From: Raillietiella orientalis
Lineage: Eukaryota
Assembly: GCA_036172245.1 (NCBI GenBank)
Contig: JAYWIR010000081.1
Location: 186,001-250,000 of the forward strand
DNA length: 64,000 bases
Direction: 5' to 3'
In this document: positions 1 through 64,000 of the stretch, in pieces
How the letters are laid out: every line of letters starts with the position of its first letter
How positions within the stretch are numbered: position 1 is the first letter of the stretch
Notes under the pieces: model-generated
The model's database searches: none
Seen by the model: only the letters and a program-made list of their open reading frames with translations
What the model was told of the DNA's origin: nothing
Translations under genes and position numbers: made by a program

Positions 1-403
1 TCGAGAGCGCGCATGACCTTCGAAAAGGCGCGCTTCTCTCTAAAGAATAGAGATTGCCTACCTTGTAGAACAATGAGGGGTTATACCCCTACTCAACATA
101 GGCCGACAATTCCGCCGCGGCTGCAGGCGATGGCGCCGACACAACGGCGCTCCACGCCCGTGCCGCAGCGGGGACCGATTCTGTGGGTCCGGATGCCCCA
201 CCTCCATCGCCAGTGGGGGCGAAGTTGCCGCCGCCCCCTGGCTCTCCATCGCCTCTGGAGGCGGCGTTGCCTCTGTCCCCTGGCCATCCCTGGTGGTCTC
301 GTCAGTCATCGCTTCCTGATCGACTACCGAACGACACGACGCTTGCACTGGGGGACACTTCCTGGCACGAGGAGCACCAAGAAAACACATCCACCCTGGA
401 GCA
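1..403 (-). mobile_element. LINE family A, 5' end and start of ORF1 (runs off window edge)
   Basis: Homologous to 18925-19320 (MTDETTRDGQG...EAMESQGAAATSP); 5' motif GGATGTGTTTTC; abuts host RT at the KAFD codons. Confidence 0.85.
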
Positions 404-1470
404 CGCAAGGCGGTCGACTTCGTGGACCAGGAGCTTTTGTTGGAGCTCCTGGGTCGCATGGGCTTCCCACCCTTCCTACTAACCTACCTTCGCTCTTGCT
501 GGCGCAACGCTATAATCAACGTCTCTTTCAGTAGTTAACAAGTGTACGGCGTGCCGGTGCGACGGGGCATCAGGCAGGGCGATAGCCTTAGTCCCCTGCT
601 CTTCAGCTCCTACTTCCAGTTTGTGCTGAGAGCATACAGGGTGACTTTGGCTGCTTTGCCGAGCTCGTGCCCCGGCACGCACGCCGTAGCGGCTTACGCC
701 GATGATCTTCTGCTCCTTTGGCCCATGTTCGCCCCGGTAACCGCAGTCGAGGACTTCTTCGACCTGTTAAGTCGTGGGACTGGACTACGGGTAAATAAGG
801 CAAGGTCATCGGTGGTAGCGGCTGGTGCGACGTGGGTCGGACGGCCTGACTGGATCCGTTTGTGGATCCCCATGGCGAGGTGCTTGAAGTTCCTTGGTGT
901 GCCGTTGGGGGACTATTCCCCTTAGGAAGCGTGGTCGGGACGTCTCCGGAAAGTAGAGTTGGAGATCGTCCCGTTCTTGGAAGACAGGTTTCTCCTTCCG
1001 GAACGGTCCGCGGTGTGAAACGCGTTCGCGGCTTCCATCCTCCAGCCCCTGCTTTTTGTTTGCCCCGTCCCGCTGCAGTTGACGAAACGGACGAAGGACC
1101 TGCAAATGATCGCCCTTTGGGGAAGAGGGAGGCCCTGACTCCCGTTGATGAACTTGTGTGCTCCGCGTCGGGATGGCGGTCTCGGTCTCTTGACGCTGGA
1201 GAGAGTGGAGTCTCAGCTGCGATTACGTACCCTGGCCATCGCAGCGAAGTTATGGAGCACCCCTAGGTGCATTCAGACCCGCCTTCTAGCCAGCCGTGTG
1301 TCCCGCTGCGATGGACTCGCATCTTTTCTTCTGCGCCCAGGCCAGAAGATAAGAAGATGCGGCCTACAGCTCGGGCGCGTGGCAACATTGGTCAAGGAGA
1401 ACGTCTGGATGGCATGCAGTTCCGCCAACTCCTCCGCATGGCTGGAATAATCTGTCTGAATTAAAGTCCC
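404..1470 (+). pseudogene. Degenerate LINE ORF2 fragment (RT domain, B/G-type), host of the family A insertion
   Basis: KAxDFVDQELL, RRGIRQGDSLSPLLF, AYADDLLL, LKFLGVPLG, APRRDGGLGL; in-frame stops. Confidence 0.9.
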
Positions 1471-1479
1471 CAGCGATCA

Positions 1480-2378
1480 GGTGTGCCTTCCGCACGTTCG
1501 TATCGGCCAGCCATTCGCGCTCTTTTGTCGTTCAATTGTGCGACATCGAACCGGAAATCTCCGACCGCGATGTTGTAAGCGTGCTGGCGAAGTTCGCCAA
1601 AGTGCACGCCCTGTAGAGGATGCCGAACCCTTTGAAGGATTCCTCCTTTGTCCACATCGGACAAGCCTCCGCTCGGATCACCGTCGCGAACAGGCGTGTT
1701 GTGCCTGAGCAGCTGCAGTTGAACGGCACGGTCGTTCATCTGTGATTTATAGACCAAACTCGCGCGTGCAAGCAGTGAGGCAAGAATGGGCTCCGAATTA
1801 AAGAGTGCCCCTCTCCTAGATGCCGTTATTGCAAAGATTCCGGGCACGAAATCAAAAAATGCTCGGTACTTGCACGAAAAAGAGCCGCATCGGAAATTCG
1901 TCGGGTTGAAGAGACCACTGCACGAAAAGCCGCAGCGGCAAATAAAAAAAGTCGTCGGCAAAAACTCGGAAAAAACAACGAGCGATCCACGGATGAAAAG
2001 AAAGCATCCCCGCCCGCAACGCCCCTAAACTGGAAAGTCACGGCGGAGAAGACAATAAAAGGGGCGCGAGGGTTTGACGCGTGCCGTGCCTTTCCTCTCT
2101 GCCGAACTCGCAGGCAACTCTCCGAGCCAGGAACCAGGAAATCTCCGTAACACCCTAAAGGGAAAGGTAGAAAAACAAAAAGATCGCAACAGTACGAAGA
2201 GTTTTAGCCCCGTTCCTTTGTCCCTTCCGAGTTCCGGACAGCCCCACTGCAGCGTAGGCCTTTCTTCAGAGGCTACGAAAGCCGTAAAAGCAGCGTCGCA
2301 GCAAGCAAAAGCACGCTGCATGCAGTCGCCCCTTCGCCAACTCGGCAGGTTCCCCCAACTCCCACAAAAGGTGGAGTA
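1480..2378 (+). pseudogene. LINE ORF1 fragment (RRM-like region plus zinc knuckles), probably the 5' part of the family E copy that resumes at about 7870
   Basis: Manual translation SFVVQLCDIEPEISD...KFAKVHAL...CKQ*GK..C..CRYCKDSGHEIKKC resembles ORF1 at 27346-29199; link to E is inferred from position. Confidence 0.65.
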
Positions 2379-2661
2379 AATTTATTTTTCAAAAATTTTT
2401 CTACAAAAACATTCACACTGCAGTCTCATTCATACCATTTGCAGTGTCTTTACAACTCTGAGGTCCATGGGTTCACAAGTTCTCCACTCATGGTGCGTTT
2501 CCTGATGTTTGGTCCTGGGCGTCGTCTTCTATCATCTTCAGGATAAATCAATACGTCCAGGCTTGGAATTTCCCACAGTTTCTAATGCGGATTTCCCTCT
2601 ACAGAAGCCCTTGTAGGATCTCAATCGGTGGTGCGGCTCTTCTGGCTTTCCTCATTTTCCA

Positions 2662-5600
2662 CTACCGCACAAGTATGCCGGTGATGAAGAGGGCGCTGGT
2701 CGTCCTCACCATGGGAATGTAACAGGGAACATTACCATCCCCCTGAAACATCACGGCGATGCTCTCCATTACGGATCTGTTCGTGAGTCCGATGATCCTT
2801 TTTAGGATCAGCCAGTCATGCAGCAATGTAAGACAGGTCAAGACGCGAAGACTCGTGTCGTTGTCATCACATGCCGTGCATTCTCGATCTTCCCTTCTTC
2901 CGGTATAGTACTGCAATCGGGACCCACTCTGGATTCCTCCATGAGAAAACATCAGGAGGTCATCCTGGGTGCCCTGCGTTAGGTCACTTCTCCAGAGCAT
3001 CGTGCCGATCGCTAGCAGATTGATCCGGTCACTTCCGTAGATATCGCCGGCTTCCTGGAGGGCACTGATGTGACGGACTTCTTCCCGAATTAATCTTCGG
3101 AGGTTTGTTTTGAATACCCTGGAGCACGCGAAGTCGTTGTGGTTGATCCACACCTCGCGGGTCATGTGGGTAAACCTTCCTAACATCATCTTTATATACC
3201 TAAGTATAAAAGGGTGATGTAGGTACCCTTCTCGTTTTCAGTACTGGATTCGTTGTAGTTTAACTCTGGACCGCTTATGGATCAAGCTTCTCGTGTCCGG
3301 CGGGACAGGAAGCATCCAAGAGATCACCAGGATAGTCTCGTTTTTTTAGAGTTCCCTACTTTTCGGCACGATCTTGATTTTGTGCTTTCGCACTAGTTGT
3401 TGCTACCTCGTGCAGATTGGGTCGATTTTTATCCATTTGCCTGCTCCGCCTAGCAGCGCAGTCATCAGTCCTTTCCAGTTGTTCAACAACAACGCGTAGG
3501 CCCTGGGCGACGCATACAGCCATTTATCCCAGTAAGTGGCAATGTCCAGAATGTGTCGCGTATCCATGATTTCTATGGACTGTGCAAGCGAATTCATCCC
3601 TGAACCGCCTTCTTACTTGGGACAACACAGGTTTTAGTCGAACTCTGGGGCGATAGTGGCCATACAATGTTTTTCTCTGCAGCTTGTCGAACTCCCTCGT
3701 GGTTTCCTTGTTCATCCTCGCGAAGGCTTCCTCGAAGAGCACTTTGAGAAGGAGTACTCCATTCCATATGTTGGCCTTTCGCTTCATTCCAAGGTCCATT
3801 CCTGTGTACTTGGCTGCTTCCTTGTCCGTTTTCCCTAGGATCTACGTCCACAATAGCTTCGACGCGAAGACGTCGCCAATGTAGACACCCAGGTACTTGG
3901 CCTTGTCCACCGTTCATAATCCTCTTCCCGCTAGAGCAGAGAGATCGAGGATTCCAACAGGCAAGAGCTGGCTTTTCTGGGCGTTGATCTTTAGACCCAG
4001 ACCTTGATCCCTCAGGTCTACCACATCCAGAAACGCTCGTTGATTTCTCTTTCCCTTGATACACAAGAGTAGAACATCAACGTATGCCAGATGGGTAAGA
4101 CGCTGGCTATCTATTGTTATGCCTTGCAGTCGTCCGCTTTTCTCGATAAAGGACGACAACGCCTTCATGTAGATGACGAACAACATCGGACTTAGCGAAT
4201 CGCCCTGCCGGACTCCCCGTCTCATCCGGATTGCTGCCGTCTCCTGGCCGTTGACTTTGATTCGGCAGTACTGCTTCTGGAGTACCACCCTCACAAAGTT
4301 GCTGGAGTGTTTCGGAAGGCCTACCTTTTCCAGAACTTTCAGCAGCTTCCCATGGTCGATAGAGTCGAAAGCCTTCTCTACGTCAGTGAACAGCAGAGCG
4401 AGGTTCTCCACGACGTATCGGGTGATTCCGACGGTGACCTGAGCACACTTGACATTGTCCGACATGAGACGTCCAGGGACTGCACACGTTCATACTGGAC
4501 AGATGAGCCTCAACATGACCTTGCCTGAGCGGTTGGACCAGATCATCGCCAAAGACCTGACATCGGAGTTCAGGATCGAGATTGGCCTCCATTGAGCGAG
4601 CTGCGTGAGGTAACCTCGATTTGGCAACAATCTCATCCGACTCTCGTATTAGGACTGTAGAAGTCTTCCTTCTTCGCGGATGCAGAGGGTCAACTGGTGG
4701 AACAAACGCAGGTAAGCATGCAGGTACCGCTGATAGTGAGTGATGGGTACGCTGTCAGGGACCGCTGCCACGTCCTTGCGTAGTTGACCAAACGCGGTCT
4801 TCACCTCGTCTTCGGAGAACTCCTCCTCCAGTCTGTTTCGCTGTAGATCGTCGGTCCTCTTCTCGAGATAGCTCAGAAAGGCTTGTTGACTAGAACGATA
4901 GAGATGTTGTCGCCTGAAGTGCTTCGTGTAAAGCCTGTGAAAGGCTTCCACGATATTTTCGGACAACTGTCGCTCTTGACCGTCGTACAGGATGCAGAAG
5001 ATATCTGTTGCAAGATTTCCCTTTTTATGATGTTGAAGACGTACCGACTCTCGTACTGATCGAAGTACTTTGAGAGTAACCGATGTTGGATGTTCTGCTC
5101 TCGGTACGCGTCCTGCCTCAAGCGACTATCCCCGAATTGCATCTTTGCAAACCGGTGTATCCTGTTCTGCATGCTGTCCCAGTCGGCGACTCTTCTGATT
5201 TTTGTGGTCTTCAGATTCGTCTCCAGGACCTGCTGATGTCGAGGATGTGTCTCAAACCAGGAGGGCATGCTGATGAGCGCCGCCCTGGTGCCTTGCCTCC
5301 GCCGAGGATTCTCCGTTCTTAGGAAAAACCGAACCAGGGGATGATCGGACAACGTGGTCATAATGTCTCGAAAACCCTGGATGCGATTCCCAAGTTCGCT
5401 GCTGTGCAGGACGTGATCGATCGGATTGTGAATTGCAGTTCGCCACACGAGTTCGAACTCTTCGGATAACCGCCCATACGCCGTCCTTCTACTGGCGTCT
5501 CCGGAGAGAGTGATCTCATCAATATCTTGAGATCGTCAGCAACAATCACGACGGCCTTGGGAGCAACCTTGTCACGGAGTGGTGCATGCAGCGCCTCCGC

Positions 5601-5972
5601 ACAACGATGTTTTATACTGTGCGGCCCGCACGCGTTCACCAGGATGAGGTGAACAGTAGCGGACCAGGCCAGTCGCACGCCGATGATTCGTCCGCCGTCC
5701 ATATCCAGAATAGTGAAGGCCAAGTTGTTCTTGATTAGGACCGCCACACCCTGCGTGTTTCGTTCTCCTTCGCTGACGAACATCTGTTTGTGGAATCGTC
5801 GTTCCATTTGCTGACTAATCACGAGACCCATCTTGTCTGTGTACTGCAGGCACACTATGTCTTGTTGAGCGATGGTCCGCACAATCCTTTTTCTTTTTCC
5901 CTGGTCGACCATACCGTTTACATTCCAGGAGGCGATGTTGAGCCTCCTGGCGGTCGATAGGGAAGAGGCCAT
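2662..5972 (-). pseudogene. Family J ORF2 (APE endonuclease plus RT), multiply frameshifted
   Basis: ORF pieces 5358..6077, 4873..5448, 4649..4966, 4383..4592, 3914..4465, 2662..3189 give collinear EN and RT motifs. Confidence 0.85.
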
Positions 5973-5985
5973 AAAAGGGGGAGAC

Positions 5986-7751
5986 CTATTTTTTGGCCTT
6001 CCTGAGCTTCTTTTGTCTGAGAGAGCGTGCTCTTCCAGACAATGAAGAAGCAGCGGGCTTCTCGCTGCCGGCGTCACTCTCTGTTCCAGTGAGGTCGGTA
6101 ATTTCCGTCTCCTCCGTAGAGTGTTCGGCCCGCGCGTTTAATTTTCGAGATAGCGCCTCTATCTCGACATTGGCGCAGAAGTTCGCCTTTACGTCGAGAA
6201 GCTGTTCCTCTAGCTTTTCGCGCTCGGGGACCTTCACAACCTGGTTGACCTTCTCCTGTGCATTGCAGACCTTCTGCAAGATTTTCTCTTGCTGGGGACC
6301 GCTCTGAACCTCCATGTCTTCATTAGCCAGTGATGCTAGCTCCTTCGTAGATTGCAGAGCCTCCTGCGACAGTGGAGTGGCTTCGGCTATTTCTTCTTCC
6401 GCGCCTTCTTGCGCTACCTCCATCTAATCGCCTTCTGGCTCTTCACCTTCCAGGATAAGAAGGTTTCTTGCTCCTTGAGGAGCATCCTCCACTTTCCCTT
6501 CTTCCCTACCTGTATTAAGCCGTCTTCCGATACCGTGACGGCTTATTTCACCTTCTTTGGTCTTCCTGCTTTCTTAGGCTGTTCCGCCTCCTTGGTGTTT
6601 CTTTCTCTCACGGAAGAGAGACCTCGAATCCTTCTGCAGTTTGCAAACTTCGGACAGCTCCATTTGGCATGTCCGCGTTTCTTGCAGAAGGAGAACACCT
6701 CCGGCTGCGGACAGTTTCGGACTTGATGTCCTACTCAGCCGCAGCATAAACAACGACACGTTGGGCAAGCGCCGGCCCTGCGGCCAAACTCCTTGCACGC
6801 GGTGCAGAATATCGACTGTCGGCGGTAACGCACGTTCACACCCTGGGATCGTTCGTCAAGAACGGCTAATCCAGGAATAACAGCTCCCTCTTTCTACTTC
6901 ATTTCGGCGATCATGTCGCCAGAAAATATATTTCCAGAGAAGTTCTGGAATTCAAGGTCCAGAACTTCCCCATACTGCTCCAAAAAGTTCCACACCGATA
7001 GTTGCGGTGTGAGGATGGAGATCCCGTTCAGAAAGACGGTTGTGTATGGCATTTCGCCAATACTACAAACCATACTCCCTTGTATATTGATCCCCTTCTG
7101 GATCAATCGCTCTCTAATATTTTCACAGTCTGTGATGACTGTGAACCCGTTATTTGCCGGTATGATCGCCTGTATGCGATCAAAATTGATATCGGTTTTA
7201 TCCAGGGACAGAGACACCTTCCTAATATTATTCAACTTGATCAGCCTAATATTGAAAATGATGGGCTTCACATTCGGCCCTAATTCCACGATCGGCCGAT
7301 CCACCTTTTGGACTTTACCGCATAGCGGCTTCCCGAATTTTCTTGGTGGGTGGACACTCGCTTGTCCAGCCGCCACCGACGCATAGTAAAAGTGCTGCGC
7401 TGCCGCAGCTGAACAAGATGGCGTCTCGCGCTGAACCGCGTGGACGCCCGCGGGTCCTGCCTGGGACGTAACCGCCGCGAGCGCAATCCTCGACGTCGCC
7501 ACCGTTGCCGACGCGGGCGGCACCCCCGGCATCCCCGCCGCGGGCACGATCCTCGGCGTCGCCGCCTCTGGCACGACCTCCGCCGTCGTTGCTGCGGGCA
7601 CGACCCTTGGCATCGCCGCCGCCGGCGCAGCAAAGCCAGCCGCGGGCGCGATCCTCGTCTTGCCTTCCACCGCCTCGCCGTTGCCGCACGTTACCTCCAT
7701 GGCTTCCATGGGGGACGACGTTCTCTCCACTCCTCCTCCAGGTGCCTGCAT
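5986..7751 (-). pseudogene. Family J ORF1 (Ala/Pro-rich N-terminus, RRM-like region, CCHC knuckles, coiled/acidic tail), disrupted
   Basis: ORF pieces 6894..7751 and 5986..6423; knuckles such as CKKRGHAKWSC; homologous copy at 63000-64000. Confidence 0.75.
7480..7650 (-). repeat. Degenerate ~27-bp coding tandem repeat (AAxPRxVPA) in family J ORF1
   Basis: AAMPRVVPAATTAEVVPEAATPRIVPAAGMPGVPP; similar array at about 63260-63420. Confidence 0.6.
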
Positions 7752-7870
7752 CCTGGCAGCTGGTCTTGCTGCACGGGATTACTGCAGGTCTTCCGCCGCG
7801 AACTCCTTGGCCCTTCTTTTGTAGTTTCTTCTGGAAACTTCCTTTCTCCGGGCGCACACGGGCACAATTA

Positions 7871-9365
7871 ACTGATTAAGTTGTCGAGCGCACAATACCT
7901 TGAGCCGCGAAGCAAGTTTACCGACTCGGCAGGAGAAGAGCAACCACCCGACTGCCAAGAAGGTGACTCCGTTGCCACCTTTTAAAAGCGTAGCGAATGC
8001 ATCGCCTCCATAGAACGCAGCTGAAATCCCGGAAGTTTCCGCAAGTACTGCTGCAAAAACCTCAGAAAATCGCGAAGGCGAATAGAAGGTTGAGGAGAGG
8101 AGGAAAGAGAAATCTCCAAAAAAACTTCGCAACATCCATCCTTGAGGTCTTCCAAAGGAAAAAGCAGTCGCGCGAATACGAAAACACGCGGGGATTGCGC
8201 TTCTTTCCAGGAAACAGCCAGCGCCTTCAACGCGTGCAAGAGCGCTTCTGTGGCCGCCGAGAAAACCATTCCGGTGCAATCGGACCGATGCAAGCGCACG
8301 TCGATCGTGCGAGCATCAGACTTCACAAAGGAGTCCGATAGCGCCGACGAACGACGCGTTACTCGAGCGGGAGCGGGCGCCCGCATGGCTGAAGCACTGA
8401 AGCGTCACAAACTCGCCGCGGAACGGCGAGTGCTCACCCCGGAACCCCAATGTTCTGCACCCGAAAAGGAGCACTCGATTACGTGCTGCAGCACAGTTGA
8501 GGCCGGTGGCGACCGCGCCCTCAAGCCCGTCGTGCTGCTTACTGCCCGCTCGCCGGTTGAGGCGAGCACCACGGCCTCGCTTTCCAGTCCGTGATGATGG
8601 CAATCGCTTCTTTTCGTTTTGTTGCCGTGACGTCTTGCAACGGCAACGCGCTCCAACACAAGGAGAACCGGCGACTAGTGGCTCACGCTCTGCGCGCCTT
8701 TGACTTGACGCTCCTGCAGGAGATTCACAGCATCTCTGAAGAGCAGGCTGCCGAGGTGCGGTGTTGCACGTACGTAGGGCGTCGCTTTCCTCATGCGAGG
8801 AACTTTAGCGGGAGCGGTGCGCAGCGTCCGTTTCGACTGGGAAGGCCGAATGGGACACATTTTACTCAAGTGGTGCGACTCGATCGACCTTGTCGTAACC
8901 AACGTCTACGCGCCGAGCGGTGCTGGACGATGGGCCGAAAGGATGGAGTTCTTCGGTACCGTTTAAAGCCAGTGGTTCACTCGATCTCAGCCTACCGTGG
9001 CACATCTCATTGCTGGGGAATTTAACGTGCACCTGCTTTTCGAGAATAGCTCCCACAAAAGGGAAAAGTTGCTAGCGAAAGAGATGTGCGCGTCCGTGTA
9101 CGCGTGCAACTTGTTTGCTAGCGACCCTATTACGGAAACCTCACGGGAACACGTACTCCTTGCTTAACACTTCCTCTCTTGAGTGAGTCGGAGCTGTCCC
9201 CTCCCATCTGTGCTTTTAGAGCAAACAGGCTCGAGTTCGAGTGGCTCCCGCCAGGCAAGGGGCCTCCAAACTGTTTCTGGAGGATGCCGGCAGACTTGCT
9301 AAGGCACCCGTAGGCGGCTAAGCATCTTTGCCAGTACCTTCTCGGTTTTGCCATAAGGGAGTTTG
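7871..9365 (+). mobile_element. LINE family E fragment: ORF1 C-terminus plus APE domain, interrupted by family D and resuming at 14856-14960
   Basis: ORF1 ends SLSSP* overlapping ATG (TGATG, 8592-8596); LLQEIH, NVYAP, AGEFN; reading ...GFAIREF| continues |VDWDDLKRSVHEF at 14856; homologous to 61500-62990. Confidence 0.8.
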
Positions 9366-9366
9366 A

Positions 9367-14855: not shown

Positions 14856-14959
14856 GTGGACTGGGACGATCTGAAAAGATCAGTCCACGAGTTCTGAAGC
14901 TGCTTCCCCTTGCGCCTCCTTCCCTGTGGCTTCAAGGCAGGCGTGGCCAACACGACCTG

Positions 14960-20681: not shown

Positions 20682-20695
20682 TCTTCCCAGCAGTA

Positions 20696-49125: not shown

Positions 49126-49140
49126 CGCCGAATCCCTTGG

Positions 49141-52100: not shown

Positions 52101-55100
52101 GCTTACAATGCCGGACCGCCGTCTGCTGCCCACCAAACTACAGGTTGAAGACACGGTCGTTCACCTGTATTTCGTGGGCAAAGTTAGAACGTGCGAGCAA
52201 TGCGGAAAGGAGGGGCATTGTTTGGATAAATGCCCCTTTGGAAAATACTGTGATTGCAAACTAGCCGGGCACCAATTGAAAAATTGCCCGGATGCTTTGG
52301 GAAAAAAGGCAGCCGCGGAACTCCATGTTAACAAACAAAGCGCGGATAAAAAGAAAAAATCTTCGAAAAACCTGGAGACGTCGCGGCAGAAATTGCGCAA
52401 AAACGCAAAGCGGAATGTCGCCCCAAAGCAGCAGGAAACCACTCACGCGAAGCCCTGCGCGCTTCCTCTCGCGGCAGGGGAGCCGCAAAAGAAAGAGTGC
52501 GGGGAATCCGGGGCAATGGTAAGTCCCCCTAGGCGCAATAGCTGTCCTTCCCAAGCACGCCGGGCTCTCTCGGAGTTCGAGCAACCGGCGGGGACGCCAA
52601 TGGACAACGGCGGTAAGGACACTTCCAGTACCGTCAGATCCATTCCTTCACCTTCTGCAAAGGCTGAGAAGCCTATATTGGGTAAGAAGAGTTGTGCCGT
52701 GTCGACTTCGAAAGTCGGCAAAAAAAAATCTGCGTCGCGATCCAACACCGCGTAAGCGGAGAAAAATCACACGCCGTCGCAATCGGAGAGCAAGCTCTCG
52801 ACTGGCGCGGATGCCATGCCAACGAAGGGATTAAAAGCCCTTCCGAAGGCAGCGTCCATGACGAGCGTGTCGAAGTCATCCAAAGTGCTCACGTCCAAAG
52901 ACGCGGATGGCTTCAAAGATGGCAATGCAGCACAATCTCCATTTACGGCGCCACGCGAAGTGAGGAACCGTAATGAAGTAAAGAAGACTTCAGCATAGGT
53001 CCCTCGTGCAACTGCGCGTGAGCACGCTGAAAACCTGGCTTTGCTGCGCCCAACTTGCAATAGGGGAGGAGGAGATGGAAAGCCTCTACGAGCCTTTTAC
53101 CACCGTTGAAATTCTCGCCGGTATCAAAAGGCTCAAGAGGCGTAAAGCTCCAGGGGAAGACGGCTTGCCCGCGGAGTTCTTTCAGAGCTTCGCGGAAGAG
53201 CTGGAACCCCTGCTGCTTAAGTTGATCAGGCTGATCTGAGACGAAGGCGATGTTCCAGCCTCGTTTCGGTCAGCCAGAGTGAGTCTCCTTTCGTAAGGGG
53301 GAGACCTGAGGGATCTAAAGAACTGGCGTCCGATCACGATAGTAAATACGGACGCCAAGTTCATCGCAGGGCTATGGACTTCGCGTCTGGGGCAGGTGGC
53401 AGAATCCGTAATTAGCCCGGAGCAGACTTATGCTGTTCCCGGGCGAAGTATGGATGCCAACCTCTTCTTCGCAAGCACATGGGTGCACCTGCAGAGAAGA
53501 GAAAAGAAAGGGATAGGGAAAGTCGGCAACCCCACATTGGGGCCGCCAGCCGGGCTGGGAAGGGACCCCCGGGCGGGGCAGGGGGCCCTAGCGCTCGCAG
53601 TCGATCTCCACAAGGCGTTCGACTGTGTAGACCAGGAACTCCTCTTGGAGCTCCTGGGTCGCATGGGCTTCCCACCCTCCCTGATTTCCTACCTGCGCTC
53701 TTGCTGGCGGAATAGGACGATAACCGTCTCTTTCAGTGGACAGAAGGTGTATGGCGTGCCGATGCGGCGGGGCATAAGGCAGGGCGATAGCCTCAGCCCT
53801 CTGCTCTTTAACACCTACTTTGAGTTGGTGCTCAGAGCGTACAGGGTGACTTTGGTCCCCTTGCTTAGCTCGTGCCCCGGCACGCCCGCCGTAGCAGCGT
53901 ACGCCGACGATCTTCTGCTCTTGTTGCTAATTTCCACCCCGTCAAACGCGGTCGGAGACTTCTTCGATCTGCTCAGCAGCGGGACCGGACTCAGCGGGAC
54001 TGCTCAGCACCAAGAGGTGATCGGCAAAGCATCTTCCTATATGGAAGGAGCCGCCAGATGGCCTCAATTGACCGAGGATACGAAAAGGGATCTCGCTAGC
54101 ATACGCCGACGGTTTACAGACGCTACCCAACAGCGCACCCGGTGATCCTTACCCCTCGCCCCCTTGATATGTTTTTTTTTTTTTTTTACTTCCGCCCTAT
54201 TAGGCTCCGAAACATTTTAAGTGCTCTCTATTTGAATCCCCGTGAGTACGGAGCTTCACCAAGGACCGGTTACCCCTCTCTCCAGATTTAGATTTTTGTT
54301 TGTTATCCCTCTACACCCTCAGTGTTGTTGGAAGCGGTTTGTTCACCAGGCCTGTGCGCCAATAAATTCTCTGTGCTCCTTGTCGTTTTTTTGGTTACAG
54401 ACATGGTCTTTGACCGGCTTATTTTCAATAAACGTCCAGGCGTGACCTCGTGAATAATTTCAATCTCCGCCTGCTAACAGGTGAGCCAGCAACACAAGAG
54501 AACGCGATGATCGAGTTGTGCGCCGCCATGCGTGCGCGCAACTTGTTCGCGGGTAAGAGGGGAATGGTCCGCAGCATCGACCACGTCTTCGTCGACGCTG
54601 ACCTGTGTTCACGGGTCGGCAAACGGGAGAGGGTTGCGTCGACGTTGTCGGACCATTCCCGGTTAATGTTCGAGATGCGGCCTCGCGACAAAGGACCGCC
54701 ATCCAGAAATTGGCGTCTGCCGGGGGACTGGACGCGACTATCAGGTGCGAAGGAACACCTTCGCGAATACCTGAGAGGCGTCACGCTCCGGAATCTCCAG
54801 GACTGCGACCTTTTTAAGGAATCGGTCCGCGAGTTCTGTGAGCAGTTCCCCCTGGATCGCCTGCCCCCCGGATTCGGCGAGGGTGCTCGCAACCATCGGG
54901 CCTATTTACAGGCTCGTAGGTACGAGTAAACCCCTAATGTTCGTCGCCTGGCCGAGTACCGCGCCGTGGCCGAACGCCAAGCCTGGCAATCCGGGTCGGC
55001 CAGCTTGCTGGACGACCAGGGCCGGGAATGTTCGTCCCCGGCGTCGGTACGGCATCTCGTGCGGAGTTTTTATTCCTCCCTTTACGCCAGGGAGCCCCCG

Positions 55101-57828
55101 GATCGAAACGCCTCTCGGCGCTTGCTTCCGGATGGTGCCACGGCAATAGGGGAGGAGGAGTCCTTAAGCCTCGATGAGCCTTCTACCACCGGCAAAATTC
55201 TCGGCGGTATCAGAAGGCTCAAGAGGCGGAAAGCTCCAGGGTAAGACGGCTTGCCTGCAAAGTTCTTTCAGAGCTTCGCGGAAGAGCTGGCACCCCTGCT
55301 GCTTAAGTTGATAATGTTGATCCGAGACGAAGGCGATGTTCTCGCCTAGTTTCGATCAGCCAGAGTGAGGTTCATTCCGGAAGGGGGAGACCTTAGAAAT
55401 TTGAACAACTGGCGTCCGTTCACGATTGTGAATACGGACGCCAAGTTGGTTGTCAGGCTATAGGCATCGCTTTAGGGCAGATGGCAGAATCCATAATTAG
55501 CCCGGAGCAGACATATGCTGTTTCCGGGCGAAGTATGGATGCCAACCTCTTCTTCGCGAGCACATGGATGCACACCCAGAGATGTCAGAGGGTGAGGAAG
55601 GGAAAGGAAAAATCGGCAACCCTACTTTGGGGCCGCCAGCAGGGAAGGGAAGGGACTCCAGTAAGGAAAAGAAGCCGTAGCACTCGCAGTCAGTCTCCAT
55701 AAAGCGTTCGACTGTGTTGAACAGGAGCTTTTGTTTGAGCTCCTTGGTCGCAGGGGCTTCTCACCCTCTTTAATCACCCAGCTGCGCTCTTGATATCGGA
55801 ATGCGATTATCTGCATCTTTCTCAGCAGACAAAAGGTATATGGCGTGCCGGTGCGGCGGTGCATAAGCCCCGCCGCACCGGCAGAGCAGGGGACTCAGGC
55901 GAAAGCCTGAGTCCCCTGCTCTTCAGCACCTACTTTGAGTTGGTGCTGAGAGCACATAGGGTGACTTTGGCCTCTTTGCCGAGCTCGTGCCCCGGCACGC
56001 CCGCCGCAGAAGCCTATGCTAACGTTCTTCTGCTCCTCTTACCTATGTCCACCCCGGCAAAGGCGGTCGGAGACTTCTTCGATCTGCTCAGCCGTGGGAC
56101 CGGACTGCAGGTCAACAGGGCGAAGTCGTCGGTGGTGCCAGTAGGTGCGGCGTGGGCAGGGCAGCAGGACTGGGTCCGTCTGGGGATACCCACGGCGAGG
56201 TGCCTCAAGTACCTTGGTGTGCCGTTGGGTGACTACTACCCTGCGAAAGCGTGGTCCAGCTGTCTTCAAAAAGTTGAGACAGCGATCGGCCCGTTCCTGG
56301 AAGGCAAGTTTCACTTGCCGGAACGGGCCGCGGTTTGGAACGCCTTCGCGGCCTTCATCTTTCGCCCCTTGCTTTTTATTGGCCCCGCCCCAAGAGTAGT
56401 TAAAAAGAGGACGAAGGACCTCCTCTGCATCGCCCTTTGGGGCAAGAAGAGGCCCCGAGTCCCTCTGCAGGACTTGTGCGCTCCGCGTCGGGACGGCGGC
56501 CTTGACCTCCTGACGCTGGAGCGGGTGGAAATCCAGCTGCGGTGGCGAACCCTCGCCATCGCAGCGAAGATGTGGAGCACCCCTTGGTGCGTTCCAGCCC
56601 ACCACCTCGCCAGGCGTGTGTCTTCATGCGAAGGACTCGCGTCGTTTCTTCTGTGCCCTGGCCGGAAGATCCGAAGATGCGGCCTTATGCTCGGACGCAT
56701 AGGAACCTTGGCGAAGACGAACGGTCGGATGGTTTGTGGCCCCGCCAACTCCTCCGCCTGGTTATAGGAGTCTGCTGGCACATGATCTAAGCTGCACCGG
56801 AGAAGTGAAAACCACATGAACTGCCTGCGAATCGGCCCATACGCCAACCGCACCCTGCGGGAAATACTGGAATTTCCCCGGAGCCGCAGGTGGGCGTTGA
56901 CGACTCCCCTTGCTACGGCGATGCCCTACCTCCTGAGGGCGCTTCAGGATCGCCAGAAGCAGAGGTGGCAAGTCTCCTGCCGGATCGCAGGCAGGGAGAA
57001 GATGTTAAGCGGATGGACCACAGGAGAACTGGCGGCCGCCACGACTTAGAGCGTCCAGCCGCGAGGATTAATGAGATGGAGCAAGCTGCTCGCCATCCCT
57101 ACGGTTGTGGTGAAGTGGCTCCCGGTACTTAAGGAAACCATGATCCTGCCCTCTGAGTGGCAAAAGTCGGCGTTGCCACTGCTGCACTGGGGTTTACCCT
57201 GCAACCCACGCCGCTTCCACTGCACAATGGGAGTTGTGGATCCTGAGTGTGTAAGGTGCGGAGAGGGGGAATTGCTCTCTCACCTTATTGTGGACTGTGC
57301 TGCCCTCCGACCCCTCTGAGAACGATTCGGGACGACCCTCGGGCTCCCTTCGGGCAGCACTCCCAGAGACGTTCTTCAACCTGTCTTCGTGAAGGACGCA
57401 CTGCACCTAGCCGCAGCCATCGCAACCTTGTGCTGCGTCCGTGGCATCGTGGCGGCATAAGCGACGCCAACAACGAAGGAGTGGTTCAACACGCAAGAGA
57501 TGTCATCCCATACGCCCAACGCTTTTTGCGGAGAGCTGCCGGATGGCACAACTGGGAAATATGCGGATGGACCTCGAGGGCTTCCTTCAACGTATGATTC
57601 CTCCTCACAGCGAATAGTAATCCCTTCCCTCCCCTCCAAATTCTTTTTGTTTGTTCATTTTTTCTTCTTCTTTTTCTTTTATCCTCATCCCATTTTCCTG
57701 CTAAGGAACGCTACGCCGGGCAGCTTGCCGGCTTTCCGGCAGGTCCCGTGCGTATGCCCGTGAGCTGGGCCTTGTACCGCGTATGCTGGGCTTTTTAAAT
57801 AAACGCCCCGGGCGTACCCGGGTGTAAA
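49141..57828 (+). mobile_element. LINE family B, second head-to-tail copy, interrupted by family C
   Basis: 5' UTR nearly identical to 43480 onward; ORF1 to 50973; APE to AGDFN at 51441, resumes at 54457; RT 55790..56767; 3' motif 57798-57828. Confidence 0.9.
51442..54456 (+). mobile_element. LINE family C with perfect 9-bp TSD; chimeric interior (ORF1 51496 to about 53035, B-type RT piece about 53050-53990, C 3' end)
   Basis: atttcaatc at 51433-51441 and 54457-54465; ORF 51496..52755 matches 27346..29199; 3' motif 54427-54456. Confidence 0.88.
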
Positions 57829-58372
57829 CCTCCAAGGCAAGAAAGAAGGCCGTAAGGCATTCGGCCTCCCCTCAGGGGTCCCCCACTTCCGACTCCGAGG
57901 TGGAGGCCGGAAACGCAGCCACCGTTTCTACGGCACCCCGCAAGAAGGCTGGACGTAAGTCCACAAAGCCGAATAATATCCTTCCCCTTTACGAAGAGGA
58001 AGAGATGCTTGCCGGAAGCGAAGCTGACATGCGCGTTGAAACTCCCGGGCCCCTTCGCACGGGAGACTCTCACGCGCAGACACGGACGGGATGGAGGGGG
58101 TAGAGACCGAACAAATGCTCCAAATGCCTGAGAAGGCAAAAAACCCACATGGACATCCCGCCCGACTCGCAAGAGTCGGGCTCCCCACACCTTAATCTTC
58201 CCAGCAAAAATGCCGCGTATCTCCTCCCGCCGTCGTCTGCGCATCGCCGTTTGGAACGTGAACGGCAAGACAGACGCCGGCAAGAGACGAGACATGGCCT
58301 CCCTTCTGGAATTCTTCGATCTTGCGCTGCTGCAGGAGATCCACATGATCTCCGCAGAACAAGCGCAAGACA
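57829..58372 (+). mobile_element. LINE family A fragment: ORF1 C-terminus and ORF2 start, interrupted by family E
   Basis: Homologous to about 20313-20860; MPRISSRRRLRIAVWNVNG...LQEIHMISAEQAQDI then junction. Confidence 0.85.
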
Positions 58373-61300
58373 TTTCACTCCCGGTTACGACGGGGCGTTC
58401 ATTTCATATAAGTTCAACAGAAGCAATTATATAAAATAAACCTGTTGGGGACCATGCCCCAACCGACGACGGCACAAGTATCAAAAGTACATTGCTGGCA
58501 CACAGGTCAGAATAACACAGATCGGTTTGTGGGAACTGGAAAAACAAGCAAACAAAAACAAAAGAAAAAGAAATCAACGGCAAACGCCGAAACAAGAGTC
58601 TTTGTGATCGCTCTGGTTCGCTCCGGGATAATAGTAATGGCATTGGTATTCTAGCAGAGCGAGCAAAAAAGGGGTATAGGTGGGTTTCAGGACGTAGTGG
58701 TCACCAGATTGAGCCGTTCCTAGAAGTCTGTAAACCGGCGGTGGATGCCGGCGATGTCCTATCTGACATCGACCCGAAGATGAGACCACCTAGGAGCGAT
58801 TTCAATGGAATCTGCTGCAAACCGGTATGCGTCCCTCCGCTGCGCTGACAACTGCAGGGCAGATCGAGCCCTCACGATGGCGCGAATGCAACACATGGTA
58901 ACGACAATCCCGCATATCGAAAATTCATTCCTCCTGAACAAGCGCCGCAGTACATCATTGACAGTGCCTCCCTGCGGCAGGATGGCTGAAACCAGCCTTC
59001 GCCTCAGTTTACGGAGGTCACCGCAGTACAGCAAGAGGTGCGGAAAAGACTCGATCTCACCGCACCTCAAACAGTTTGGCAGAGCAGCTCCCCCGCAAAC
59101 GATGCTTCGCTGCCGATTACAATGGAAACCTTAGTGTATAAAGAGCACCACATCTTGTTTCCAATTTAAGGGAACACGGAGCTGTCCAAACAAACGAAGA
59201 TGACCCCTATCTTTCCGGAGGGTACACTTAAATGATCATTCCATCGAAGCAGGCAATTTGCCCGATTACGAGGAGTGGCAGTTTCTACCATCTCCTTCGT
59301 CGTGCAACAGCCGAGGAGCTTCCTGACTCCTGCAATTGAGCAGGAGAACTCCCATTTCGCCGGTAGGCAAATTTCTTTGCTTGCTCTAAGGGCAGACAGC
59401 GCTGCTCGAGTGGTGTGGCGGGCAGACGATCCGACATCTGCTTGTCCTGCATGACTTCGTCCATTGGATGACTGAGGAGAAGTCGCAGGCGCCAAAGATC
59501 TAACGGGAGCGCTCCTTCGGAAGCTGCGCACGATAAAAAGATTCCTGCCGCCATGCATTAATATTCATGGGGCGGCAGGAGATCCAACATTGGGCTTCCA
59601 GCAGTGAGGACAACTGCCTCAGCGAAAAGCCAAACCCTATTCTGGTGTGCCGAAAGTGGGGCAACAACGAAAGCAGTCCCTCGCTTCCCGTGCAGCGCCT
59701 TAGTATAAGTCGTGCGGGTAAGCACCACGGCGTACACCACAGCTTGGCACAGAGCCGCAGCATTCGAAACTGCACCTGCAGCTCGATGCTTTTTAAGTCT
59801 AGGATGCCCAAGCCTGCATCGAAAAGCGGCACCACCAAGTCTTTAAGTCTTAAGCAGGATCTTGCAGCGCCTCACAGCGTTCTGCGTAGAAGGTGCTGTG
59901 CCCAGACTTTGACTTCCTGAAGGGGTCGACAAACAAAAAATGAGGGGCGGAATAGGGAAGCAAAGAAGGTGTTCCAGATGCTGGCCCGTTTTGTGAAGAC
60001 GAACTCGCCTCCTGAGAACTGGTCAAGTGCACGCACTGCCTTCCGAAGGCAGTCCGACCACGATTCTGAGATTCAGAAGTCCCCAAACGGCACGCCAAGG
60101 TACCTTAGGTACCTGCCGGAGGGGATCCCCAGGCAAATCCAGTCGGACTGCCCTTCCCACGTAGCTCCAACCAAAACAACCATGCACTTCCTCCTGTTGA
60201 CGCTCACGCTTGCACCGCGACGGATAAACTCAAAGAAATCTTCAAGCGACGCTGCCGGGGTGGACATGGGCAACAGAAGTAGGAGGTCGTTTGCATACGC
60301 TGCAACGGACGGCGTACCTGGACAGGAACTCGGCAGGTTGGTTAGCGTAAGACTGTAAGCCTCCAGCACCATTGCAAAATAGTTGCTAAGGTAATGCGGG
60401 CTTAACCTATCATTCTGCCTTATTCCTCGCCTAACCGGAACGCTGTACACGCGACAGCCACTAAGAACAATGGATGTAATCGCGTGGCGCCAGCAGGAGC
60501 GCAAGTACGCCAACAGGGATGTCGGGAGCCCAAGTAGTTTCTAGAGCTCAAGTAAAAGCTTTTGGTTCACGCAATCGAAAGCTTTGTGAAAATCGACTGT
60601 AACCACCAAGGCTCCCATGGTTTTCCTTTGCGACCCGCGCCTTTCTCGGTGAGAGATCGAAGGCGTTGCTTTCCCACGACGATCCATCGCCACGCGATGC
60701 TGCAATTGCAGCCATTGTCGGATGAACAAGAGCTTCGCGTCCATGCACCGCCCAGGAACAGCGTAGCTCTGCTCCAGACTTACCAAAAACTCCGCGATCT
60801 TCCCCATCCGTGCCACCCATAGTTTTGAGAACAACATTACGAGTGAATTTACTAATGTGATCGTACGCCAATTGTTCAGTTGACGCAAATCTCCGTCTTC
60901 CGGCAGGAGACGCATCTTCGCTTTGCGAAACGACACGGGGACATCGCATGCGTCTCGCATCAACGACGACATTATGAGCACCAGAGGGATAAGCTCCGCC
61001 GCAAAGCACTGGAAGAATTCCTCGTGGAGTCCATCCTCGCCTGGCGCTTTTCGTCTCTTGAGTCCCGAGATGGCCAGAGAAAGTTCCTCTGCCGTGAAGG
61101 GCTCATGGAGACGCGCGCGTTCCTTCTCGTCTACAACAGGTGCATCAATCGGGAAAAGCAGCTAGGAGAGACTTCGTTCCGTCGGTGCCTCTTCATACAG
61201 AGAAGATTAATAGCACCTGTCTATCCGTCGCACGTCGGCTGGAGGCGAGCATTCCCGGTCCTGGTCGTCAAGCACAACTGTCGCCTGAAACTGCCAAACC

Positions 61301-62995
61301 TGGCGCTAAGCCTTGGCCTTGTACTCGGATAATAGACTAACTTTTGCGCGCCTGGAGTAGGAGCGGGCCTGCAGAGAATCTCTGCTGTTGGCTACATTCT
61401 CTTCGAAGCCGCGCGGAAGCTGTTGCAAGGCAAACCGGCAGCAAAACTCTCGGACCGCTCTTTTCAGATTGTCCCAGTCCGCCAGCTTACTTATGTCGAC
61501 GCCGCGGGTGCACTGGCGAGGATGCTCCTCCTCCTCCGGGTGAATAAGCCAGTCTGCCGGCATTCTTCAAACACAGTTTGGACGCTCCTTGTCTGGCGAT
61601 AGCATCTTGAACTCGAGCCTGTTGTTGTCTGAAATTACGGACGGCACGCGACCTCTCGGACCCACTCGATAGAGCAAGTGTTCATCGAGGAATACATGGT
61701 CCGGTGATGTCGCCATAACAGGGTCGTTAGCGAACAGATTGCACGCGTGCCCGGAAGAGTACATCTATTCCACTAGCAACTTTTACCTTTTGTGTGCACT
61801 TTTCTGGATCAGCAGGTGCACGTTAAAGTCCCCCGCAATGAAGTCCGCCATAGTAGGTTGATCACGAGAGAACCACTGGCTCTGAACGGTACCGAAGAAC
61901 TCAATCCTTTCGGCATATCGTCCAGCACCGCAAGGCGCGTACACGTTCGTTACGACGAGGTCGCTCGAGTCGGACCACTTAAGTACATGCTGTTCTACTA
62001 GGCCTTCGGTGTCGAAGCGAACGCCGCGCACCGCTTCCGCCAAAGTTCCTCGTACGAGGAAAGCGATGCTGCACGTAGGTGCGACGCCGCACCTATAATG
62101 TAACCTTGCACCGAGCGCAGTTCGATTTCGGCAGCCTGCTCTTCGGAGATGCTGTGAATCTCCTGCAGGAGCGTCAAGTATAAGTCGCGCAGAGCGTTAG
62201 CCACAAGTCGCCTCTTCTTGTCGTGTCGGAGACCGTTGAGTTTGCAGCACGCCACGGCAACACGACGAGAAGACGCGATCGCCCTCATCACGGCTGGGAA
62301 AGCGAGGCCGTGGTGCTCGCCTCACCCGGCGAGCGGGCAGCAAGCAGTACGAAGGGATGGAAGGCGCGGTTGCCACCGGCCTCCATCGTGCTGAGGGTAA
62401 TCGAGTGCTTCTCCCCGGATGCAGAACCTGCGGGTCCCGGGGAGAGCACTCGCCGTTCCGCGGAGAGCGCATCACGCCTCAGGGCGTCAGTACTGCGAAT
62501 TCTCGATCCCGTGCCAGTAACACGTGGTTTTGCGGCGTTAAAGGACTTCTTTACGGAATCTGATGCTCGCACGATGAACGTGCGCTTGCATCCGTCCGAT
62601 TGGAGCGCAATCGTTTGCTCGGTGGTCATAGAGGCGGACTTGCACGCACTTTTTCCAGGAGAGAAGTACCCTCCGCACGGGTTTTCTTCTTCACGCGGCT
62701 GTTGTTTGCCCTCAAACAGCTAACAGATGGAGGTTGCGAAGCCTTCTTGTGAGTTTTTTTTTTCTCCTCTCGACAATCTCTCACTTGCCGTTACGATTTC
62801 CGGACGCTTCCGCGACTTTTGTCTCGGAAACCTCTGAAGTTTTCGGTACCGTATCTAAAGGCGTCGCTTTCGCCACGCCTTTAAAAGGAGGCAGCGTAGT
62901 CGCCTTTTTGTAAGTTGGGAGATTGCTTCTTTCTTGACGAGTAAATAAACTGGCTTCCAGGTTCATTGTATTGCGCGCACGACGACAGTTAATTA
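58373..62995 (-). mobile_element. LINE family E: ORF1 tail, complete degenerate ORF2 and 3' end
   Basis: ORF pieces 62288..62629, 61998..62291, 61783..62043 (NVYAP, AGDFN), 60541..60981 (DFHKAFD), 60073..60513 (AYAND), 58759..59070; 3' motif 58373-58403. Confidence 0.86.
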
Positions 62996-64000
62996 GTTAA
63001 TTGTGATCGTGTGTGTCCGGAGAGGGAAAGTATCCAGAGGAAAGTGAGTGTGATACAGTCCACAGTGAGTGTGGACAAGAGTGTGCTGCGAAGGATCTGC
63101 TCATACAACTACAAATGAAGCGCCAAGGAGATCAGAGCGGAAAACCTTCAAACTTCCTCAGCAATAGTTTCAGCTGTCAGGATGCTGGCATTAGCAGAAG
63201 AGGAGAAGCCGACGTCCCCATGCAGATGGAGGTAACGTATGGCAACGGCGAGGTGGCATCGGCGATGCCGAGGATCGTGAACACGTAAGGCTTTGCTGCG
63301 CCGGTGACGGCAATGCCAAGGGTCGCGCTTGCTGCGGCAACGGACACGCCTGCGGCGGCGATGCCGGGGGTCGCGCCTGCGGCAGCGGCGTCGGCAACGT
63401 CGAAGTTGCGCTCGCGGCGGCGTCCCAGGCGGGACCAGCGCGCGTCCACACTGTGCAGGGAGCGTAAGATGCGACGCCATCTTGCTCGGCTGAGGCGGTG
63501 CAGCCGTTTTTGTAGGCGTCGGTGGTGGCGGGGAATGTCAGTGTCCATCCGCCAAGGAAATTCGGCAAACCTCTCAGAGGGAAAGTCAAAAAGGTAGATC
63601 GGCCTATCGTCCAGTTAGGGCCAGAGGTGAAGCCTATTATTTTTAAGACTGAAACGATAAAGTTCAACAATATCCGGGAGATATATCTGTCTCTAGACAA
63701 GACAGATATAGATTTTGACCGTAACCACGCAATCATTCCCAGCAACAACGGGTTCACGGTCTTCACGGACTGTGAATACGTTAGGGAAGGATTGATCCAG
63801 AATGGGATCAATATTCAAGAAAAGATGTTTTGTGGCGTTGGCAAGATGCCATACACTACCGTGTTTTCAAATAGCATATCCATCTACACACTTCAACTCA
63901 CGGTGTGGAAATACTTGGAGAAGTTTGGGGAAGTTCTCTACCTCGAGTTTGAGAACTTCTCAGGAAAAATCTTTTTTGGCGACATGATCGCCAACATAAA
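62996..64000 (+). mobile_element. LINE family J, 5' end plus ORF1 N-terminal part (runs off window edge)
   Basis: HPPRKFGKPLRGKVKKVDRPIVQLGP matches 6894..7751; same junction with E as at 7870. Confidence 0.83.

Follow-up and report, generated by a model that had tools for sequence, protein, structure and literature searches.

Several long interspersed nuclear elements (LINEs) are known to insert at fixed sites. Tx1L and Tx2L of Xenopus laevis are LINEs of the apurinic/apyrimidinic endonuclease (APE) type whose insertions fall at a single site of the DNA transposons Tx1D and Tx2D. A series of further LINEs is specific to ribosomal DNA (rDNA), namely R1 and R2, and also R4, R5, R6, R7 and RT, and the DIRS-1 clusters of Dictyostelium exemplify a transposable element (TE) that prefers its own kind. 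To our knowledge, the targets of site-specific LINEs are either maintained by the cell (rDNA, small nuclear RNA genes, transfer RNA (tRNA) genes, telomeres, microsatellites) or lie in a single DNA transposon. Here, we analyzed a 64,000-nucleotide stretch of the Raillietiella orientalis contig JAYWIR010000081.1 (positions 186,001 to 250,000 of the forward strand; hereafter the window), in which related APE-type LINEs are nested in one another and several lineages recur at one position of their hosts.

The available portion of PMC4640811 includes transposons among the targets of LINEs, assigns the target-specific APE-type LINEs to the Tx1 and R1 clades, and describes precise 3' versus variable 5' boundaries for Utopia and R2. 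In the accessible part of PMC6719617, Tx1 targets Tx1D, TEs can prefer other TEs, and Tourist targets Tourist. The passages of PMC8226300 at hand describe Zepp clusters as products of nested insertion into existing copies, with arrays consisting mostly of 5'-truncated 3' ends, and nesting clusters of Zepp and ZeppL also appear in the available part of PMC3446292.

We consider it likely that, in our window, lineage-specific endonucleases target fixed DNA words in other LINE lineages and thereby build a LINE-only island. A preliminary description had proposed a guild of LINEs that use each other's conserved coding motifs as insertion targets; taken as a whole, that proposal is partly supported.

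Recurrent junctions among nested LINEs

LINE homology covers 93% of the window, the remaining ~7% lying inside the single-copy J element, untranslated regions (UTRs) and linkers, and GC content stays between 50 and 62% throughout. Among stop-to-stop open reading frames (ORFs), fragments of the Pfam families RVT_1, Exo_endo_phos, zf-CCHC and zf-RVT (the last below its cut-off) were found on both strands. Self-BLAST gave 247 high-scoring segment pairs, so that nearly every part recurs within the window in both orientations at 64–92% DNA identity, and tblastn likewise showed a mosaic of related LINE pieces. Using the uninterrupted element at 43465-49125 (X1) as a ruler, we placed the other pieces on a common body by DNA and protein, and with the help of element ends the window was parsed into about 27 pieces of about ten lineages, which bears out the earlier count of about ten related, nested families. 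Piece coordinates below are those of this final parse, and X1 coordinates are positions on the X1 body. Nesting reaches a depth of seven (A4 > I > M > K > X2 > C2 > B fragment). A guest inside its own lineage was found in 0 of about 20 host–guest pairs, and guests are antisense to their hosts except for C; irregular sense junctions also occur at Y1/E2 and X2/A5. The window holds no tRNA genes and no Rfam families.

Lineages were grouped by reverse-transcriptase protein identity, which is 30–79% among them, and by a FastTree tree of this protein. X1, X2 and H1, plus a fragment, form group B, and S2, Y1, Y2, G1 and G2 form a looser cluster. A and D are sisters (support 0.999), as are I and E (support 1.0); K pairs with a K-like piece (both F-type; support 1.0, 63% reverse-transcriptase identity), and J stands far outside the other lineages (about 30% identical).

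The clearest recurrence is that of lineage A. Its three 5' junctions, at 403 (−), 18925 (+) and 36137 (+), all lie at one host nucleotide, ..GTCGAnCnCCTTGnG|, antisense to HKAFD of the reverse transcriptase. P1 (18925..24494, +), a complete A-family LINE of 5570 bp, interrupts HKAFD of H1 in antisense orientation and is bordered by a 14-bp target-site duplication (TSD), TCGAACGCCTT(G/A)TG, its flanks being TCGAACGCCTTGTG and TCGAACGCCTTATG. A3 (1..403, −) is an A-family 5' end that runs off the window edge and is 83.5% identical to 19329-18361; its terminus TGCTCCAGGGTGGATGTG abuts antisense HKAFD of S2 at the same host nucleotide as P1 and A4. A4 (36137..37314, +), an A-family 5' part 89% identical to P1, lies in Y2 and is cut after ORF1 CSVIV by I. 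X1, which is uninterrupted, reads straight through this site. By simple arithmetic, the chance that three insertions share a nucleotide and strand in a body of 5.6 kb is ~(1/11200)^2.

Lineages C and G are equally exact. C1 (25746..29253, −), which carries a 640-aa ORF1-type ORF and lies in H1, and C2 (51442..54457, +), which lies in X2, both lie in the sense of their hosts at AGD|FN, and their junctions agree at either end; the insertions follow ..GGGAGATTTCAATC, TTT(T/C)AATCTCCGCC comes downstream, and both have the 8-bp TSD TTT(C/T)AATC. The G 3' ends at 16101 (−) and 34627 (+) are at the same nucleotide, antisense to HWTRG, and downstream of both stands CTT(C/A)CCCG(C/T)GTCCAGTG, antisense to (F/H)HWTR(G/V). 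G1 (16101..17136, −) has its 3' end at antisense FHWTRG of Y1, carries an internal 1.9-kb deletion and is the host of Q, and G2 (31680..34627, +) runs from a GFGEG-equivalent up to a 3' end that meets Y2 at antisense HWTR(V). For A (three times at HKAFD), C (twice at AGD|FN) and G (twice at HWTRG), the proposed sites thus resolve to the nucleotide.

Lineage B is recurrent with more spread. Its 5' ends at 43483 (X1), 49144 (X2) and 31679 (−, H1) follow ..TGG(C/A)GA(G), 6–11 nt before the antisense GFGEG codons, and three of the four B 5' junctions lie within ~2 nt of one another. X1 (43483..49121, +) is a complete B-family LINE of 5639 bp, antisense at GFGEG of K, and its flanks are diverged copies of a 22-nt GFG word (17/22 alike), a TSD of ~22 bp. 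At its 5' end, H1 adjoins the GFGEG-equivalent of G2 in antisense. X1 and X2 form a head-to-tail tandem in which a single 22-nt copy of the target word separates them (spacer 49122..49143, −, antisense SKGFGVA); tandem insertion is described for other site-specific LINEs, Utopia and R2, in the available part of PMC4640811. The third copy of the GFG word expected after X2 is absent. A twin-priming inversion of X1/X2 with K was considered and rejected because X1 is full length. TSD length is lineage-specific, being 14 bp in A, 8 bp in C and ~22 bp in B.

The J 5' parts abut both E copies, at ~7826 and ~63043-63107. The single insertions were all located at the motifs named for them: D before DWD, E after LQEIHMISAEQAQDIS, F (our K) at LWF, I at CSVIV and H (our M) before RETGDVP.

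Probable target words and off-site junctions

What is recognised looks like a DNA word rather than a coding motif as such. D (P2; 9367..14851, −) is a full-length LINE and the sister of A, and its 3' end abuts CATAAGGGAGTTTGA in E2. This flank is a part of E2 outside the reverse transcriptase: E1 has a homologous sequence (..DISKLADWD..) with which it aligns base for base, and the E2 host resumes as DWDDLKR on the other side of the insertion. The flank was also considered as a transduced HKAFD piece, a possibility rejected on the same alignment with E1. The word CATAAGGGAGTTTGA is three edits from the A 14-mer CATAAGGCGTTCGA, with 12 of 15 positions matching. Shuffles of the window held 16–35 words (mean 25) within three edits on both strands (128 kb), so that a given junction would fall on such a look-alike with a chance of ~2 in 10,000. 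Because the lineage at this non-homologous look-alike is A's sister, the match favours a nuclease that reads DNA and was inherited by both.

Occupancy gives a similar picture. All four occupied A/D words read AAGG, while 7 of the 10 unoccupied HKAFD sites, including A's and D's own, read AAAG (Fisher p ~0.015, from a small sample that later mutation may confound). The copies of the target words in the elements' own bodies, at 22389 (A), 11483 (D), 46198 and 54870 (B), differ from the occupied words: those of A and D read AAAGCA where occupied words read AAGGCG, and B's own GFG word keeps GGATTCGGCG without the adjoining CCAAGG. These differences, of which that in B is suggestive only, may amount to self-immunity, for which the sample is too small to say.

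We propose that the island would have been built by repeated target-primed reverse transcription of at least ten related APE-type LINE lineages. The endonuclease of each would nick a lineage-specific word inside the bodies of the others, namely CAYAAGG(C)GTTYGA for A and D, GATTTCAATC for C, CACTGGACRCGGG for G and TCNCCAAGGGNTTCGGCG for B. A second nick at a fixed distance would give the lineage-specific TSDs of 14, 8 and ~22 bp, and new copies would thus land repeatedly at the same nucleotide of other LINEs, usually antisense. We infer that recognition of the word falls to the APE domain, and the elements presumably live mainly or only in each other.

Several observations weigh against this proposal. 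The X2 3' junction lies in the ORF1–APE linker of an A-like element rather than at GFG, so that only one of the two visible B 3' junctions is at GFG; it is the 3' junction that the first nick fixes. The 5' end of Q, a B-like piece, is at 17137 at antisense RNKRAYL, 33 nt from the GFGEG junctions. The 3' ends of K and of the K-like piece are at non-homologous host positions, which are alike at 10 of 15 bases by eye. At J, a 65-nt indel where the boundary is presumed to lie is the only break in collinearity between the two loci; the boundary is not exact to the nucleotide and cannot be fixed further because the window has no uninterrupted E copy. Five junctions lack an element end (1452/1460, 1521, 14950, 18353/18361 and 57824). 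ORF2 is intact in none of the copies, and the longest ORFs measure 640 aa (C1) and 623 aa (the reverse-transcriptase part of X1). In the conservation test, which ranked the DNA of six ORF2 targets by percentile in a 9-body alignment, only three of the six are in the top 15%. All of this evidence, moreover, comes from a single 64-kb window, with 2–4 junctions per lineage.

The claims of the preliminary description must be narrowed to the same extent. That every family with several junctions always uses the same motif holds for A, C and G, while B and the F-type each have an off-site junction. Of the four B insertions assigned to GFGEG/RNxRAYL, the four 5' junctions stand and the X2 3' junction, in an A-like linker, does not; the two J insertions at one ORF1 site of E stand in that both 5' parts abut E, short of a nucleotide-exact boundary. 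The targets are conserved motifs for only half of the ORF2 sites, with percentiles of 96 (A), 87 (H) and 86 (C) versus 64 (E), 42 (B) and 26 (G).

The five junctions without an element end look like deletions or rearrangements. The one at 18353-18361 joins Q (body ~1230) to H1 (body ~4121), where two Y > G > B nests face each other, and is probably a deletion or inversion breakpoint. The junction at 57824, the 3' flank of X2, adjoins CTCCAAGG, an inverted core of B's GFG word; it may be a look-alike of B's word, a single case that is suggestive only.

The off-site events among the B- and F-type junctions lead to the most serious alternative, in which insertion is targeted regionally, for instance by chromatin or a centromere as supposed for Zepp clusters, through a weakly specific endonuclease whose nick preference of ~5–8 bp repeatedly meets one word present in each copy of the island, and the guild is a by-product rather than an evolved partition. 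It is consistent with a window that is LINE throughout, so that any insertion must enter a LINE, with the good conservation of only half of the ORF2 targets, and with the B- and F-type 3' flanks, which share only the short (G/T/A)(C/A)AA(A/C)(C/G) (GCAACGCC, TAAACCTC, GCAAACCAC, AAAAACCCC); Zepp clusters, too, arise by nested insertion into existing copies in the available account (PMC8226300). However, a short preference would offer several sites per 5.6-kb body, whereas A (3/3), C (2/2) and G (2/2) each use a single position. D's look-alike agrees with A's word at 12 of 15 positions instead of 5–8, and TSD length is fixed per lineage. We therefore regard regional targeting as unlikely and retain the lineage-specific words as our explanation.

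Origin of the recurrent junctions

Recurrent junctions could in principle be copies of a single event. If each had arisen once and been copied with its host in ancestral composite units by segmental duplication, the dead composites would show equal and neutral divergence of host and guest. We set frames by cross-family tblastn and calculated Nei–Gojobori ratios of nonsynonymous to synonymous divergence (dN/dS) on MAFFT pair alignments, with +1/+2 frame shifts as controls. dN/dS was 0.18–0.54 in 11 of the 14 tested pairs versus 0.76–1.5 in the shifted-frame controls, and the excess of third-position differences was significant in 10 of 14 listed pairs (p 0.023 to 4e-15). Such purifying selection between copies means that they stem from separately evolving active sources.

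The individual cases differ in direction. Of the hosts of A, S2–H1 gave a dN/dS of 0.32, S2–Y2 a dS of 1.04 and dN/dS of 0.20, and H1–Y2, 71% identical, a dS of 0.97 and dN/dS of 0.25, versus 89% identity, dS 0.28 and dN/dS 0.30 for the guests P1–A4. For G, the hosts Y1–Y2 are 68% identical (dS 1.14, dN/dS 0.24) and the guests G1–G2 81% (dS 0.29, dN/dS 0.54). The latter are at the same time the hosts of the B guests Q–H1, which are only 71% identical (dS 0.91, dN/dS 0.25). For J, the guests J1–J2 (ORF1) have a dS of 0.72 and dN/dS of 0.29 versus 0.32 and 0.60 for the hosts E2–E1. The C guests C1–C2 are 94.1% identical, and their hosts H1–X2 82–87%, X2 being nearer to X1 (88–92%), which is without C. 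Host and guest divergence is thus unequal in all five recurrent cases, the guests being the closer pair at the A, G and C sites and the more distant one where the guest is B or J.

Not every pair carries the codon signal. C1–C2 diverged neutrally (dN/dS 0.85; mismatches by codon position 32/29/30; third-position excess p 0.57), which shows that decay after insertion leaves no codon bias here. Less favourable to independence are G1–G2, with a weak third-position excess (p 0.078), and the C hosts H1–X2, where two stretches had third-position shares of 0.34–0.39 (p 0.46 and 0.053). The independence of the C site therefore follows from the unequal divergence and from X1 being without C, as H1–X2 lacks a clear selection signature.

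Segmental duplication can point to this almost neutral host pair and to homology that runs across junctions: 14953-18353 vs 35780-30498 (71–74%), a large inverted repeat in which the order Y > G > B is present twice, and 27661-30297 vs 53034-50402 (89%). Against it stand the host and guest divergences, which differ in all five cases and in both directions, the purifying selection in most pairs, which dead duplicated copies cannot show, and the grouping of X2 with the C-less X1. The preliminary description had itself named congruent, equal divergence as its refuter; this comparison was run, and the refutation fails in five of five cases. We consider duplication very improbable. The recurrent junctions are supported as independent insertions, and the order Y > G > B was built twice, independently, as seen from the unequal host and guest divergences and the purifying selection between copies. 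The remaining alternative, chimeras formed by template switching or recombination at conserved motifs, would suit the pieces without element ends (53039-54088 in C2 and the junctions 18353/18361 and 1452/1460), but it is the least credible of all since recurrent junctions join complete 5' and 3' termini to the host with TSDs, present in A, C and X1, and since most guests are antisense, which template switching on sense RNA would not give.

Element anatomy, remaining pieces and known systems

The elements are APE-type retrotransposons without long terminal repeats (non-LTR; the L1 group taken broadly), with an APE, a LINE-type reverse transcriptase, a CCHC ORF1, and TSDs without terminal repeats. 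Exo_endo_phos matches five ORFs (E 1.9e-14 to 1.4e-5), and the P1 APE matches L1 endonuclease chains (1vyb, E 4.8e-6) and ExoIII/APE1. RVT_1 was found in eight ORFs, in seven of them above the cut-off; the X1 reverse transcriptase matches R2 and L1 ORF2p chains, and the APE precedes the reverse transcriptase in P1, X1 and P2. In X1 ORF1, zf-CCHC scored 26.2 bits versus a cut-off of 20.8, and two CCHC knuckles are visible in ORF1 of both X1 and C1. The C-terminal zinc-binding motif of ORF2, zf-RVT, scored 24.8 bits at P1 23611-24120, under its cut-off of 27.5.

Thirteen 3' ends were located, J1 by eye and twelve by a profile of the common 3' motif, which was built from seven ends and found five more. 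The 3' terminus is AAUAAACGC / AATAAACGC, a 5-bp GC stem-loop followed by TG or a short A-run without poly(A), and the stem is kept in the 12 aligned ends. Each lineage has a conserved 5' terminus (..GGACGTG..), kept in at least ten guests (A three times, B four times, C twice, and D). The A, B and C 5' termini (403, 18925, 36137, 43483, 49144, 31679, 17137, 29253 and 51442) share ..G(T/C)GGA(C/T)GTG(T)TTTTC.., which suggests an internal promoter or initiator kept across lineages. All three A copies carry a 42-bp tandem duplication (two copies) in the 5' UTR, at 202-284, 19044-19126 and 36256-36335.

Lineage C has a long ORF1-type ORF, at 27346-29268 (−) and 51427-52755 (+), which in C1 is open over 640 aa with two CCHC knuckles and a K/S/T-rich tail, and neither C copy has an ORF2; C, ~2.25 kb long, appears to be a non-autonomous LINE derivative with ORF1 only. 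The 3' stem-loop of C, GGCGTGACC, has its match in G, whose target is a different one. C1 and C2 are 94% alike over the 5' 1.6 kb (27661-29246 vs 51449-53034) and only 72% over the 3' 0.39 kb (25746-26136 vs 54068-54457). The two tails begin at the same point, and a foreign piece precedes each: in C1 the K-like (F-type) 5'-truncated insertion (26142-27384, +), and in C2 a B-like fragment without element ends (53039-54088).

The other pieces complete the window from left to right. After A3 comes its host S2 (404..1452, +), a reverse-transcriptase fragment of a B-like host (X1 coordinates 3560-4601), and then N (1460..1521, −), a 62-bp APE fragment ending at the AGDFN (C-site) boundary, with both junctions irregular. 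E2a (1522..2357, +), a 5'-truncated ORF1 with linker whose ORF1 translation is similar to that of C, probably represents E2 upstream of where J1 inserted and would be continuous with E2b. J1 (2358..7826, −) is a distant LINE, antisense in the ORF1/linker region of E2. E2b (7826..9366, +), an E-family linker and APE 75% identical to 63043-61512, is cut by D just before DWD, and after D, E2 resumes as E2c (14852..14950, +; DWDDLKR...GFKAGVANTT) until it is cut near the GFG/RN site. Y1 (14951..16100, +), a 5'-truncated reverse-transcriptase fragment (X1 coordinates 3914-5066), hosts G1 at HWTRG, and Q (17137..18353, +), a B-like 5' part that abuts antisense RNKRAYL of G1, is cut at the rearrangement junction.

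In the middle of the window, H1 (18361..31679, −) is a B-family element in three pieces (18361-18924, 24495-25745 and 29254-31679) and the host of P1 and C1. Y2 (34628..36136, −), a reverse-transcriptase fragment (X1 coordinates 5059-3563), hosts G2 at HWTRG and A4 at HKAFD. I (37315..39760, −), the sister of E, has its 3' end antisense in ORF1 of A4 and is cut before RETGDVP by M (39761..40495, +), a 5' UTR with the start of ORF1 from a further lineage, itself cut at ORF1 LWF by K. K (40496..43482, −) has its 3' end antisense at LWF of M and reaches GFGEG, where X1 begins. X2 (49144..57824, +), a B-family element in two pieces (49144-51441 and 54458-57824), hosts C2 and joins an A-like linker at its 3' end. 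This is A5 (57825..58372, +), an A-like fragment between the X2 and E1 3' ends, 85% identical to P1 20311-20859. E1 (58373..63043, −), of the E family, has its 3' end antisense after LQEIHMISAEQAQDIS of A5, and its upstream part is cut by J2 (63107..64000, +), the 5' part of a second J element that runs off the window edge.

Searches beyond the window added little. Protein searches gave 2 and 3 matches only, the best relative, P0003, being 64% identical to B and 73% to A over 430 aa; it is an uninterrupted reverse transcriptase on a 2870-bp contig with no junction. One sequencing run contained 25% of the X1 words. Of three runs compared with X1, one supplied 328 short contigs (9 at least 99% alike), and the other two supplied one each. 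Among the ten listed of 224 loose contig ends, six are on X1 copies (45638, 45687, 45840, 46827, 47582 and 47822) and none at a predicted site, which says nothing either way, given how short these contigs are and how they break up at repeats. A metagenome scan with the 3' motif AATAAACGCCCCGGN{4,8}CCGGG gave 113 loci, none of them similar in protein or DNA to the window LINEs; these are chance matches.

If the arrangement holds genome-wide, a shared multicopy target made of retrotransposons would be divided among many related lineages, which would explain many active LINE lineages in one genome at little cost to genes. It would provide a natural series of closely related APE endonucleases with different long words, from which the encoding and re-programming of APE specificity could be learned, a parasitism of TEs on TEs that lets target and nuclease co-evolve, and a concrete growth mechanism for LINE-only islands of the Zepp type. 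The partition of target sites and the safe-harbour niche suggested in the preliminary description would depend on such a genome-wide pattern. More tentatively, the at least ten lineages may form a closed ecosystem, in which each endonuclease would read a 10–20-bp word in the genes of the others while its own words carry escape substitutions, targets and endonucleases co-evolve, lineages act as hosts, hyperparasites and competitors, and the island may be a chromosome landmark like Zepp; each insertion would then kill a rival's ORF2.

Among described systems, Tx1L and Tx2L are alike in being APE-type LINEs with a specific target sequence inside another TE. Sequence-specific insertion as in Tx1 is found for A, C and G and only in part for B. 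Unlike those of Tx1L and Tx2L, the targets in the window are the coding bodies of related LINEs and not a DNA transposon, many lineages are involved, and roles are exchanged: A inserts in B and itself hosts E and I, E hosts D and J, and G and F host B. The R elements share with the window several LINE lineages, each with its own fixed site along one shared multicopy sequence, and, in the accessible descriptions, a precise 3' junction, a more variable 5' junction and tandem copies at one site. They target a host gene family that the cell maintains, whereas here the retrotransposons themselves are the target, so that guild and target evolve together and every insertion disrupts a gene of a competitor.

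Zepp of Chlorella and Coccomyxa and ZeppL of Chlamydomonas are, in the available accounts, likewise LINE-only islands formed by nesting into existing copies. Those accounts describe one family that nests into itself, whereas the window has about ten lineages, and in place of arrays of mostly 5'-truncated copies at least ten guests keep their 5' terminus. Insertions in the window are at fixed nucleotides. Tourist miniature inverted-repeat transposable elements and DIRS-1 also prefer copies of their own kind, but belong to other transposon classes, in which neither sites exact to the nucleotide nor sets of lineages with separate sites are seen. A full-text literature search, with most subscription journals and Repbase Reports outside its coverage, found no description of several LINE lineages with distinct fixed sites in each other's bodies. 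We rate the mechanism as that of site-specific APE-type LINEs, and the architecture as that of Zepp-type islands, and see the novelty in several lineages that reciprocally use fixed words within the bodies of fellow LINEs.

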